Part shown: positions 45,956-48,620 of the stretch, one piece after another | How the letters are laid out: every line of letters begins with the position of its first letter | Numbering within the stretch: position 1 is the first letter of the stretch | NCBI GenBank assembly: GCA_965242525.1 | Contig: OZ251459.1 | Span: 96,001 to 160,000, forward strand | DNA length: 64,000 nucleotides | Source of the DNA: an uncultured Candidatus Binatia bacterium | GTDB taxonomy: Bacteria; Desulfobacterota; Binatia; UBA9968; JAJDTQ01 | Reading direction: 5' to 3' | Program-made: the position numbers and the translations under genes | Notes under the pieces: generated by a model | Databases searched by the model: none | Told to the model about the DNA's origin: nothing | What the model saw: the letters and a program-made list of their open reading frames with translations, nothing else

Positions 45956-46088
45956 GGGAACCCCTGATCCATCAGGGCAGGGGGCATGAGCGCGTCCTTC
46001 GACTTCGCTTCGCTACGCTCAGGACGAACGGAGACAGGGGCAGGGCGAGGGAATCCATCCTGGGTGTCTCGATTGTTCAGAGGTTCCT
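45956..46088. mobile_element. MITE-like element, subtype B
   Basis: Collinear with 41805-41938 and ends in the identical TGTCTCGATTGTTCAGAGGTTCCT. Confidence 0.75.
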
Positions 46089-46099
46089 TTGGACAACCC

Positions 46100-46271
46100 C
46101 ACCGTTCGTCCCCCTCGGCATCGACCCCGCGGGTTCCCCTGTGTCGAGGGGACTCAGGACCCCCACACCGTTCGTCCCCTCGGTATCGACCCTGCGGGTT
46201 CCTCCGTGTCGAGGAGACCCTGGACCACCACACCGTTCGTCCTGAGCGTAGCGAAGCGAAGTCGAAGGACG
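46100..46271. repeat. 2 x 65-66-nt hairpin-containing tandem units followed by a REP core
   Basis: CACCGTTCGTCC starts at 46100, 46166 and 46231. The first two units contain CCTCGG(C/T)AT...GTGTCGAGG stems. Confidence 0.82.
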
Positions 46272-46337
46272 GGTTTTCCCCAGGGAGAGCCGGTATCGTG
46301 CGGATCGGACGTCCCTCGAACGGGACCCGCGGTCCGG

Positions 46338-47210
46338 CTACGCCGGGTCCCGCGGCTGCAGGGCCTCGTTGAGGGACCCGGTGCGGTAGCCTTGCAGGTC
46401 GATGCTGACGTAGGTGAACCCGGCCTCCCGGAAACGCCGGAGGACCTCTTCGCGGACCCCGGGCCGGAGCAGCCGGTCGAACTCGTCCGGGGCCGTCTCG
46501 ATGCGCGCCAGCTCGTTGTGGTAGCGCACCCGGCATATGCGGAAACCCAGCTCCCGCAGCACCCGCTCGCATCGGTGGACCTGGGTGAGCTTCTCCGGGG
46601 TGATGGCCGTGCCGTAGGGGAAGCGGCTGGAAAGGCAGGCCAGCGCGGGCTTGTCCCACACGCTCAGCCCCATGCGCCGGGCGGCCTCGCGGATGTCGGC
46701 CTTGGTGAAGCCCAACTCGTCCAGCGGCGAGCGCACCCCGCGCTCGCGCGCGGCCTGGCGTCCGGGTCGGTGGTCGCCCCGGTCGTCCGCGTTGAAGCCG
46801 TCCAGGATGTGGGCGATGCCCAGGGACGCGGCCTCGTCGATGGCCTTGCCGTAGAGCTCGGTCTTGCAGAAGTAGCAACGGTTGGCGGGGTTGGCCGCGT
46901 ACCGGGGGTCGTCGAGCTCGGAGGTGTCCACCAGCAGGTGCCGGGCGCCGATGTTTTCCGCCAGGCGCCGGGCGTCCGCTCCCTCTTCCGGCGCCAGGCT
47001 GGGGGACACCGCGGTGAGGGCCACGGCCCCGTCTCCGAGGGCGTTCACCGCCTCGGCCAGCAGGTAGCCGGAATCGACCCCGCCGGAGAAGCAGACCACG
47101 ACCTGCTCCAGCTCCCCGAGCAGCGCCCGGAGCCCGGCCACCTTCCCGGTCAACGACGCCGCGGCCCCGCGTCCACGGCTCGGCGCGGGCGCATTTTCGG
47201 TTCCGGTCAT
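46338..47210 (-). CDS. larE: ATP-dependent sulfur transferase LarE-like
   Basis: PP-loop FSGGVDS, NRCYFCK, DG.NADD..DHRPG..A, WDKP..ACLSSRFPYG, GY.TGSLN. Start could be 47228. Confidence 0.9.
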   Translation of the reverse strand: MTGTENAPAPSRGRGAAASLTGKVAGLRALLGELEQVVVCFSGGVDSGYLLAEAVNALGDGAVALTAVSPSLAPEEGADARRLAENIGARHLLVDTSELDDPRYAANPANRCYFCKTELYGKAIDEAASLGIAHILDGFNADDRGDHRPGRQAARERGVRSPLDELGFTKADIREAARRMGLSVWDKPALACLSSRFPYGTAITPEKLTQVHRCERVLRELGFRICRVRYHNELARIETAPDEFDRLLRPGVREEVLRRFREAGFTYVSIDLQGYRTGSLNEALQPRDPA

Positions 47211-47262
47211 GCTTTCGGGTCGGTTCATGCGGTTCCGGTCCGCTCCGGCCAACGCCCGCGCG

Positions 47263-47826
47263 TCAGGGCGTGGCCCTGACCCTGGGCCGGTCCAGCAGGG
47301 AGTCGCGCCAGCGCTTCAGGTTCGGCAGGTCGTCGCCGATGGACACCTTGTAATGGTCTTCCCGGGCAAAGAACGGGATGTAGGTGATGTCCGCCAGCGA
47401 ATAGTCCCCGACGATGAATTCCTGCCCGGCCATCCGTTGGTCCAGCGTCGCCAGGTGCTGCGCCAGCCGCTTCCGGTTGTTCTCGACGTCGTGGTCGTGC
47501 AGTATGTTTCCCGCCGCGGCCTGGAGCCGGGTGTTGCAGAAGTCGATCCAGATGCGCACTTGCGAGCGCAACACCAGGTCCCTGGGCATCAGCGGCGTCC
47601 GGGGGAACTTCTCGTCCAGGTACTCGTTGATGACCGCGGACTCGTAGATCACCGCGTCCCCGTCCACCAGCACCGGCACCTTGGCGTAGGGGTTGAGCCT
47701 CAGGAGCTCCTCGGGCTTGTCGCGGAGGTCGCACTCCACGAGCTCGTAGGGGATGTCTTTCTCTGCCAGGACAAGCCTTGTCCTGTGGGCGTACGGTCAG
47801 GGACCGTACGACAGCAATCGCAACAT
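47263..47826 (-). CDS. Glutathione S-transferase (omega/SspA-like), probable selenoprotein with UGA at codon 10
   Basis: GGAGG then ATG 47826: MLRLLSYGP*PYAHRTRLVLAEKDIPYELVECDLRDKPEELLRLNPYAKVPVL...IYESAVINEYLDE...YSLADI. TGA at 47799-47797 aligns with the Cys of CPYA. Confidence 0.85.
47767..47785 (-). promoter_or_regulatory. Candidate bacterial SECIS element
   Basis: mRNA hairpin CAGGACAA-GGC-UUGUCCUG starting 11 nt after the in-frame UGA, with G in the apical loop. Confidence 0.7.
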
Positions 47827-47863
47827 GTCGTCCTCCCGTGTCGGTGGTTTCCCAATGCCTTCC

Positions 47864-47998
47864 GGAAACTCCGGACCCTTCCGGCTCGAACCCCGTCTCC
47901 CTGTGGGAAAGCGCGTCCTTCGACTTCGCTTCGCTCAGGACGAACGGGGATGCTTCGCTACGCTCGGGACGAACGGGGATAACTGTCCAGGCTTCCCT
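47864..47998. mobile_element. MITE-like element, subtype A (reverse orientation), with a duplicated core end
   Basis: Reverse-complement homology to 12974-13082. GCTC(A/G)GGACGAACGGGGAT occurs twice. Confidence 0.68.
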
Positions 47999-48135
47999 TG
48001 TCCAGAGCTTCCCTCTTCCCCTTTCTATACCGGCAGGCGCGCTCCGGCAACCCGCAGCGCTGCCCCGGATCCGCGGCCCGACCCGCCCCCGACCCGGAAA
48101 CGCGCCGCGGCGCGGCCCGGCCGCCCCGCGGATAG

Positions 48136-48164
48136 TTGACGTTCCGCGGCCCGTGTACTAGGCT
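48136..48164 (+). promoter_or_regulatory. Sigma70-like promoter of the nuo operon
   Basis: TTGACG, 17-nt spacer, TAGGCT, ending 54 nt before the nuoA ATG. Confidence 0.55.
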
Positions 48165-48218
48165 TGGGGGCCGGTTCGGGCATGACTTTCCTCGCAAGGC
48201 CGTGCGCGGCGACAGCTC

Positions 48219-48620
48219 ATGGGTAGCGATACACTCTGGCCGTTGGGACTGTACTTCCTGATTGCGCTCGTGGTGGCGGGCAGCATGATCGGCCTGTCGT
48301 ACGTCCTCGGGGAACGGCATTCGGACCGCGCCACCGGGGAGCCCTACGAGTCCGGCATCGTCTCCACCGGCTCGGCGCGGGTGCGGCTGTCGGTCAAGTT
48401 CTACGTCGTGGCCATGCTGTTCGTGATCTTCGACCTGGAGGCCGTCTTCATCTTCGCGTACGCGGTGGCCTACGAAGAAGTAGGCTGGGCCGGGTACGCG
48501 GGCCTGCTGGTCTTCGTCGCGGTGCTGCTGGTGGCGCTGGTCTATGAGTACCGCATGGGCGCGCTGGACTGGGAGCCCGCGCGCCTCAGGGCGGCCAAGG
48601 CCGGTGGGGAGAAAGGGTAG
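48219..48620 (+). CDS. nuoA: NADH-quinone oxidoreductase subunit A
   Basis: PYESG, KFYVVAMLFVIFDLE, GALDW. Confidence 0.96.
   Translation: MGSDTLWPLGLYFLIALVVAGSMIGLSYVLGERHSDRATGEPYESGIVSTGSARVRLSVKFYVVAMLFVIFDLEAVFIFAYAVAYEEVGWAGYAGLLVFVAVLLVALVYEYRMGALDWEPARLRAAKAGGEKG

Follow-up and report, generated by a model that had tools for sequence, protein, structure and literature searches.

The window analyzed here, i.e., the whole 64-kb stretch of DNA from an uncultured Candidatus Binatia bacterium, is part of one contig of a 4.23-Mb assembly that comprises 7 contigs and is 99% complete. Within this window, we examined a minus-strand gene encoding a protein of the glutathione S-transferase (GST) family that very likely contains selenocysteine (Sec) and is therefore referred to as Sec-GST. 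At this locus, the listing of open reading frames (ORFs) on the minus strand contained a single ORF of 158 amino acids (aa) with a GTG start. However, the same frame further upstream contains an ATG codon that is preceded, with a 5-nt spacer, by a Shine-Dalgarno (SD) sequence. Translated from this ATG with TGA read as Sec (U), the frame comprises 187 codons, and its N-terminal part reads MLRLLSYGP-TGA-PYAHRTRLVLAEK, with the in-frame TGA as codon 10. The residues after codon 10, P-Y-A-H-R-T-R-L-V-L-A-E-K, continue into the listed 158-aa ORF. A previous interpretation made from the letters of the window alone (the sequence-only reading) had proposed that the listed ORF is a truncated form, that an ATG led by a ribosome binding site completes the N-terminus, and that a perfect 8-bp hairpin with G in the loop follows the UGA at a distance of 11 nt. 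All of these elements were found as placed, and their coordinates are given in Table 1.

Table 1. Features of the Sec-GST locus (coordinates refer to the window)
Feature	Coordinates	Strand	Details
Full-length Sec-GST coding sequence	47263..47826	-	187 codons plus TGA stop at 47265-47263
Shine-Dalgarno sequence GGAGG	47832..47836	-	5 nt before the ATG at 47826; same place in genus-level orthologues
Predicted Sec codon UGA (codon 10)	47797..47799	-	Motif U-P-Y-A, N-terminus of helix alpha1
Hairpin of the bacterial SECIS type	47767..47785	-	8-bp stem CAGGACAA/UUGUCCUG, loop GGC (or 7 bp with loop A-GGC-U); within codons H14-L20
Truncated ORF as reported by ORF and gene callers	47263..47739	-	GTG start, 158 aa; strand beta1, helix alpha1 and the catalytic residue missing
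LarE-family ATP-dependent sulfur transferase (downstream neighbor)	46338..47252	-	TIGR00268, 318.6 bits versus a cut-off of 150

The 187-residue read-through product matched the Pfam models GST_N_2 (PF13409, the best match with 81.8 bits), GST_N_3, GST_N and GST_C (37.6 bits), all above their cut-offs and covering residues 2-184. Judging from sequence comparisons, we consider it very likely that the gene encodes an intact cytosolic-type GST-fold selenoprotein with a selenocysteine insertion sequence (SECIS) embedded in its coding region. Such an intact protein with a U-P-Y-A active site had been put forward by the sequence-only reading, and it gained support from the conservation of the UGA, the pairing of Sec with cysteine among homologues, the presence of the Sec machinery, and the constraint on the hairpin.

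When the source genome and 40 others of the order were searched in six frames, 39 of these 41 genomes proved to contain an orthologue with a single in-frame TGA. This TGA constituted codon 10 in all 40 loci extracted from 40 genomes, down to 51% protein identity, and was followed by P-(Y/F)-A-H-R-T-R. Similarly, TGA occupied this column in 46 of 46 species-representative genome-contig loci that have the N-terminus on the locus; the titles of these contigs refer to metagenome-assembled genomes (MAGs) of Candidatus Binatia, 'Deltaproteobacteria', Syntrophobacterales, and Thermodesulfobacteriota. Among the best 80 metagenome loci, 79 carried TGA and one carried TGT at this position. Across the order, a Sec-GST orthologue was present at an E value of ≤1e-45 in 113 of 123 genomes (109 of 119 without the four unpublished genomes G182, G199, G218, and G179), including 53 of the 58 high-quality genomes and all 27 genera. 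All of the order-wide matches listed contained one TGA, except for two contig-end fragments that stop short of codon 10 and one full-length copy free of stops, which is a Cys copy; two further matches lie outside this listing. At the same threshold, 120 other genomes sampled evenly from the phylum did not yield an orthologue, and therefore the Sec-GST is, within the limits of this sampling, confined to the order. In family f3 of the order, many genomes harbor two Sec-GST paralogues, both of them TGA bearing.

Among the 40 extracted loci, the terminal stop codon varied between TGA, TAA, and TAG, while codon 10 was always TGA. Since the terminal stops are interchangeable and codon 10 is not, a reassigned TGA can be excluded. 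Leu4, which is located upstream of the TGA, was retained in all 62 distinct sequences through the use of six different codons, and GGAGG and the ATG were conserved in place among the genus-level orthologues; as judged from these alignments, the sequence upstream of the UGA is evolving like coding DNA. Furthermore, DNA contigs from two other studies span positions 47200-47922 with 13 and 19 differences, respectively, none of which affects the TGA or the hairpin, and thus a sequencing error is excluded as well. The four metagenome and metatranscriptome runs compared with the region consist of contigs, not raw reads, and neither TGC nor TGT was found at 47799-47797 in the contigs covering the site, in keeping with the sequence-only reading.

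In homologues that lack the TGA, the column is occupied by cysteine. The database protein P0032 (59% identity) and its two DNA forms (L128 and G170:C222) have C-P-Y-A at this position, as does a homologue from a gammaproteobacterial MAG, and more distant ones, found in Actinomycetota and in a Hyphomicrobiales MAG, contain C-P-F-A, C-P-F-C, or C-P-F-V. A Cys codon (TGT or TGC) was found at the column in P0032, L128, G170:C222, L107, L110, L111, L112, and L114. The best relative with a solved structure, RegF of Neisseria (PDB 4hoj; E value of 5e-31), aligns C-P-F-S-H-R with U-P-Y-A-H-R. As the sequence-only reading had anticipated, every homologue compared at this column displayed either TGA or Cys. 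Genome G170 contains both types, with one Sec copy and one Cys copy of the GST gene. A maximum likelihood tree of 117 proteins was computed (quick IQ-TREE search, midpoint root), from which L107, which contains N, loci of <36% identity, products of <150 aa, and duplicate proteins were excluded. In this tree, 109 Sec forms and the Cys form made up one clade (Shimodaira-Hasegawa-like approximate likelihood ratio test value of 80), and the Cys form was nested beside two Sec forms (support of 91). This topology is consistent with a single secondary change from Sec to Cys, the direction of which rests on the midpoint-rooted quick tree. Collectively, these comparisons revealed that the Sec form is nearly fixed in the order and that Cys is the exception.

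The source genome also encodes the machinery needed for Sec decoding, which the sequence-only reading had named as a prerequisite. Profile searches detected selA (577 bits), selB (371 bits), and selD (383 bits), the last with an in-frame TGA of its own, and the three genes adjoin one another. A single tRNA-Sec was identified (Rfam score of 78 bits; anticodon TCA according to ARAGORN), as the second Rfam match above the tRNA-Sec cut-off proved to be tRNA-Ser(UGA). The Sec machinery of this 99%-complete genome is thus complete. Furthermore, selB scored above its curated cut-off in 105 of the 123 genomes of the order (102 of 120 without three unpublished genomes) and in all 27 genera. In selD of the source genome, a hairpin with a 9-bp stem ending in A-A and a GUC loop is located 24 nt after the UGA, and its apical element is similar to that of the Sec-GST hairpin.

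Several other putative selenoprotein genes were noticed in the same genome. A gene for a selenoprotein B of the GrdB-family reductases lies near G000:C1 93732 (minus strand), approximately 2.3 kb to the left of the window start, and contains an in-frame TGA in the motif T-S-T-U-G-T-S (TIGR01918, 489 bits); a gene for the selenoprotein A GrdA is located at C1:3566977, with the motif C-F-V-U-T-A-A-G (NF040748, 199.7 bits). A glycine/sarcosine/betaine-type reductase therefore seems to be present in the source organism. A genome-wide scan for UGA codons followed by a hairpin yielded 123 candidates, which mostly represented off-frame noise in the G+C-rich DNA, and only the protein-like ones were followed. 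Among these were three further candidate genes with a hairpin after the TGA, namely, a UGSC family member at G000:C1 467239 (plus strand; 107 bits, below the cut-off of 125), a two-domain protein at 1679136 (plus strand) that resembles rhodanese/3-mercaptopyruvate sulfurtransferase and has U-Q-G-G-I-R at the active-site loop, and a 424-aa open frame at 1840708 (plus strand) that contains W-U-P-L-C and has no NCBIfam match.

The upper stem of the SECIS in Escherichia coli fdhF is spaced 11 nt from the UGA and is capped by a GGUC loop. The Sec-GST hairpin likewise starts 11 nt past the TGA and consists of the 5′ arm CAGGACAA (47785-47778), the loop GGC (47777-47775), and the 3′ arm TTGTCCTG (47774-47767). 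Like the fdhF-type element (model in PMC13188914), it is a stem-loop that closely follows the UGA within the coding region and has a small apical loop containing G, but the two are unrelated in sequence, the common form of the Sec-GST hairpin lacks a bulged U, and it has no Rfam match. The consensus model of bacterial SECIS elements in the legend of Fig. 2 of a 2026 review (PMC13188914) specifies an apical loop of 3 to 9 nt, an upper stem of 4 to 16 bp, a G among the first two loop nucleotides (mostly as N1-G-[G/U]-N-N2), a UGA-to-loop distance of 16 to 37 nt, and a minimum free energy (MFE) of ≤−7.5 kcal/mol. Compared with this model by hand, the Sec-GST hairpin, with its loop GGC (or A-GGC-U if the last A-U pair is open), 8-bp stem, UGA-to-loop distance of 19 nt, and folding energy of −11.6 kcal/mol, agreed with it in each of these respects.

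More telling than this structural fit was a constraint at silent sites of the hairpin region. In 62 distinct coding sequences of the Sec form, R15 and R17 were both encoded by AGG in 62 of 62 cases, V19 by GTC in 62 of 62, and H14 by CAC in 61 of 62. The codon entropy was 0 at R15, R17, and V19, in contrast to 1.6 to 2.2 bits at five other conserved Arg columns, where 4 to 6 codons each are in use, and the Pro, Ala, Glu, and Lys codons flanking the hairpin varied freely in the same sequences. In a broader set of 97 distinct 60-nt segments of the Sec form, positions +16 to +19, +21 to +23, and +25 to +29 (counted after the T of the TGA) were invariant. The single Cys lineage retains the peptide A-H-R-T-R-I-V-L but carries four synonymous changes (+17, +21, +23, and +26), each of which affects a site that never varies in the Sec forms. 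The best fold of this lineage reached only −5.6 kcal/mol, whereas the hairpin of the Sec copy in the same genome (G170) is intact at −13.4 kcal/mol. Since the Cys form changed four otherwise invariant synonymous sites and kept the same peptide, the constraint acts at the RNA level and is linked to the presence of the UGA. The SECIS-like hairpin of the sequence-only reading therefore not only fits the published model but is also subject to an RNA-level constraint that was lost together with the Sec codon.

Several results weigh against the interpretation of the gene as a selenoprotein with its own SECIS. The stem did not exhibit compensatory covariation: in none of its 8 pairs have both partners changed, and the 96% of alignment cells that are paired are equaled by shuffled controls. 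The variation that does occur affects one partner only (C-G to U-G or A-U to G-U) or disrupts the outer or the top pair, and thus the stem is supported by conservation alone; being too conserved, it leaves the covariation test uninformative. The folding energy was unremarkable, with an MFE z score of −0.08 for 66 nt (92 of 200 shuffled sequences fold as well) and −0.96 for 48 nt, and no Rfam family matched positions 47600-47900 at an E value of ≤10. No transcript or protein support was obtained, as RNA contigs from two metatranscriptome studies matched the region only in short, unlike, and loose-ended pieces. The gene neighborhood did not provide a consistent functional clue, and glutathione synthetase was not found in the 99%-complete genome with TIGR01380 or PF02955. 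A hairpin as such is ordinary in G+C-rich DNA, and the case therefore rests on comparative evidence, i.e., on the conservation of the TGA and the hairpin nucleotides, synonymous sites included, across more than 100 distinct sequences.

This evidence also bears on the alternatives. If the UGA of codon 10 were an ordinary stop, the real product would be the 158-aa protein starting with GTG at 47739, or the locus would represent a decaying pseudogene. Gene callers indeed deliver exactly this type of product. As the sequence-only reading had foreseen for annotation pipelines, 118 of the 120 best public protein hits were truncated at the N-terminus (136 to 177 aa, mostly 158 to 159 aa), the remaining two being a record with Trp at the TGA (P0010) and a true Cys form. 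TGA is, in addition, the real stop codon of the gene. Nevertheless, the 29 upstream codons are conserved as protein and vary synonymously in more than 100 sequences, and they begin with a conserved ATG led by a conserved SD sequence. A product of 158 aa would be left with a thioredoxin fold devoid of strand beta1, helix alpha1, and the catalytic residue. Moreover, in a pseudogene, a single TGA at one column would not persist in 113 of 123 genomes. We therefore regard termination at codon 10 as extremely improbable.

Translation of the UGA as Trp or Cys through near-cognate or reassigned decoding, with the hairpin merely stimulating read-through, would likewise yield a full-length protein. The Trp in the translated relative P0010 is in line with this scenario, and the case for selenium is not a direct one. 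However, TGA serves as a true stop at the end of the same gene family, where it is interchangeable with TAA and TAG, and hence the codon is not reassigned. The Sec machinery is complete and conserved across the order, Cys in homologues at this column represents the classical pairing of Sec and Cys, and in its spacing and its G-containing apical loop the hairpin corresponds to a bacterial SECIS, all of which render such read-through highly improbable. It might also be argued that the protein is a selenoprotein but that the frozen nucleotides reflect a codon or protein constraint or a translational pause, the true SECIS being located elsewhere. This would agree with the absence of covariation, with the unremarkable folding energy, and with the invariance of the encoded peptide AHRTR(L/I)VL itself. 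A constraint of this kind is difficult to reconcile with the Cys form, in which the same peptide is encoded with four changes at otherwise invariant synonymous sites. Folding of 40 orthologues did not reveal any other conserved structure within 48 nt of the UGA, and the hairpin agrees with the consensus model in every respect. A SECIS outside the hairpin thus appears very improbable, and a selenoprotein gene with a SECIS in its coding region remains our preferred interpretation.

An AlphaFold2 model of the predicted protein built from a 22-sequence alignment had a mean predicted local distance difference test score of 95.7 and a predicted template modeling (TM) score of 0.91 and displayed the canonical GST fold. 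Residue 10 is placed between the strand of residues 2-6 and the helix of residues 11-22, which, according to the model, is the classical catalytic position of thioredoxin-fold enzymes. Foldseek comparisons yielded TM scores of 0.82 to 0.94 to glutathione-bound SspA-like proteins of Burkholderia and Neisseria, to tau-class plant GSTs, and to human GSTO2. Residues V50, P51, E62, and S63 were invariant in the 22 aligned sequences, which comprise Sec, Cys, and Ser relatives; by analogy with GST structures, we take V50-P51 to be the cis-Pro loop and E62-S63 to be the gamma-glutamyl-binding pair. Both C32 and C97 vary, and no second Cys is conserved. A one-nucleophile mechanism that proceeds through a mixed Se-S intermediate is therefore likely, as far as the alignment can tell.

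Both Pfam and the model revealed an N-terminal thioredoxin-like domain and a helical C-terminal domain, the combination that defines the cytosolic GST superfamily. Within this superfamily, the best sequence and fold matches of the Sec-GST are SspA/RegF-like proteins. The GST homologues of this type from Betaproteobacteria (PDB 4hoj, 4qq7, and 6v91) matched with E values of 5e-31 to 5.5e-30 and TM scores of 0.82 to 0.88 and were crystallized with glutathione; they contain C-P-F-S in place of U-P-Y-A. Assignment to SspA proper, an RNA polymerase-associated factor, was rejected with a score of 103.1 bits to NCBIfam NF007016 against a cut-off of 314, and the Sec-GST gene has no sspB-type context. 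NCBIfam contains no model specific to the Sec-GST family.

Omega-class GSTs are defined by a catalytic Cys in C-P-F-A and an N-terminal extension of about 20 residues. The Cys-type GSTs, including human GSTO1 and GSTO2 of this class, and the glutaredoxin 2-like proteins resemble the Sec-GST in fold, in having an intact glutathione site, and in the nucleophile, which is part of a C/U-P-(F/Y)-x motif where helix alpha1 begins; in GSTO1, this nucleophile is Cys32. The match to GSTO1 had an E value of 3.8e-21 and aligned residues 2-185 of the query with residues 24-214, and the TM score to GSTO2 was 0.89. However, the Sec-GST differs in having Sec instead of Cys, in its length (187 versus approximately 240 aa), and in the absence of the N-terminal extension, as its residue 2 aligns with residue 24 of GSTO1. 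Omega-class membership was therefore rejected despite the matching position of the motif, the class being judged by the motif and the N-terminus. Accordingly, the term 'omega-like' used in the sequence-only reading applies to the active-site chemistry but not to the class.

On the basis of these features, decoding would proceed as follows. Ribosomes would initiate at the ATG at 47826, and at codon 10, the hairpin inside the codons for H-R-T-R-L-V-L would recruit SelB with Sec-tRNA(Sec), so that Sec is inserted instead of termination. Sec10 would then be located at the N-terminal end of helix alpha1, where U-P-Y-A takes the position of the catalytic Cys of Cys-type GSTs and glutaredoxin-like proteins. 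Its selenolate could attack a disulfide, a glutathionylated substrate, or a hydroperoxide, and the resulting selenenylsulfide (Se-SG) or selenenic acid could be resolved by a gamma-glutamyl thiol. The enzyme might thus act as a thiol transferase or reductase or in a manner similar to glutathione peroxidase (GPx).

The specific chemistry is much less certain than the assignment of the selenoprotein and its SECIS. No canonical GPx scored above the Pfam cut-off in the source genome, which contains two genes resembling glutamate-cysteine ligases of the GCS2 type and at least seven GST-like genes. A search of this genome for glutathione synthetase with PF03917 gave no match, but its positive control was silent too. 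As no glutathione synthetase was found, the thiol co-substrate may not be self-made glutathione. One could go further and suppose that the whole order relies on the Sec-GST as its main thiol-dependent hydroperoxidase or deglutathionylase, that the enzyme runs on gamma-glutamylcysteine or on imported glutathione (host derived in the sponge-associated members), and that it is a natural counterpart of engineered seleno-GST peroxidases. In this scenario, Sec would be so advantageous that it became fixed down to approximately 50% identity, with one reversion to Cys that was retained only as a second copy, and the organisms would lack a canonical GPx and, at least in the source genome, a recognizable glutathione synthetase. 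We consider such a role unlikely and mention it as a speculation.

Sec-containing GSTs have been noted before. Four sequences assigned to COG0625 were among the new selenoprotein families described from the Sargasso Sea (Zhang, Fomenko, and Gladyshev, 2005), the Global Ocean Sampling study of 2008 again reported a GST-like family with 12 Sec and 1,036 Cys sequences, and Sec-GST was counted in a symbiont study from 2007. In the reviews of prokaryotic selenoproteomes from 2022 and 2026, the family is entered as 'GST-like protein, PF13409, 1 Sec', and the function of such families is described as uncharacterized. The protein analyzed here resembles the published GST-like selenoproteins in having a COG0625/PF13409 domain with a single Sec, in being predicted computationally, and in its uncharacterized function. 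It therefore is not a new kind of system but an order-wide member, in Binatia-type bacteria, of a catalogued selenoprotein family (published representatives, PPR62222.1 and MEK9676863.1), with membership judged by the domain and the number of Sec residues. The published sequences, however, come from marine metagenomes, in which Sec is rare beside many Cys homologues, whereas the Binatia lineage is known from sponge, soil, and groundwater MAGs, in which Sec is nearly fixed. Our literature searches for Binatia or Binatota together with 'seleno' returned no account in print of the Sec-GST of this lineage, supplements being outside their coverage.

Engineered enzymes offer a further comparison. 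GSTs in which the catalytic Ser or Cys was replaced with Sec exhibited GPx-like activity and were efficient peroxidases (PMC9944854), and one such seleno-GST was produced in E. coli from a gene in which a mini-SECIS of fdhF followed the UGA (PMC10778597). Like these proteins, the Sec-GST would have Sec in a glutathione-binding GST scaffold; unlike these man-made proteins, it is encoded by a natural gene whose own SECIS appears to have coevolved with the coding sequence. According to the reviews of 2022 and 2026, no natural Sec-GST has been characterized, and the Sec-GST, as a well-conserved protein of 187 residues whose structure is modeled with confidence, lends itself to expression for a first biochemical study. 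Apart from this, nearly all database entries for this conserved enzyme of an uncultured order describe a truncated 'GST family protein' without its catalytic residue, and a corrected annotation changes the predicted redox toolkit of Binatia-type bacteria. For SECIS biology, the Cys lineage represents a clean natural experiment, in which reversion from Sec to Cys was followed by decay of exactly those positions that are frozen in 97 Sec forms, and it could serve as a template for reporter assays.

Finally, we inspected the surroundings of the gene. The LarE-family gene immediately downstream is probably cotranscribed with the Sec-GST gene; a scan of 46200-48250 for promoters and terminators gave nothing useful. 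The two genes are adjacent in 23 of 23 genus-level loci, but this arrangement is missing throughout the more distant Sec-GST loci, L083-L106. In 7 of the 12 distant loci inspected by eye (L092, L093, and L100-L104, all of one sub-lineage), genes for an ATP-binding cassette (ABC) transporter of the Opp/Nik/Gsi type, consisting of a binding protein and two permeases, are located upstream and a gene of the ornithine cyclodeaminase family downstream. The families were named on L101 only, with scores below the substrate-specific cut-offs and with the glutathione importer GsiBCD among the weaker matches. We rejected this neighborhood as a basis for function, as it is found in only part of another family and the scores remain below the cut-offs.

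The LarE homologue itself contains a C-x-x-C motif and a further Cys (NRCYFCKTE and ALACLSS), a pattern that presumably resembles the iron-sulfur cluster type rather than the sacrificial type. Inverted copies of a dispersed palindromic repeat, similar to repetitive extragenic palindromic (REP) elements, flank the GST-LarE pair. In the window, the repeat occurs at 45989-46280 and 47905-47980 and also near 2990, 12994, 21782, 25420, 41842, and 42300. Its 39-nt core at 45993-46031 is present in 598 copies (≤6 substitutions) in the 4.23-Mb genome, 8 of them in the window, and the contig depth over 47875-47982 rises into the thousands in two metagenome runs.

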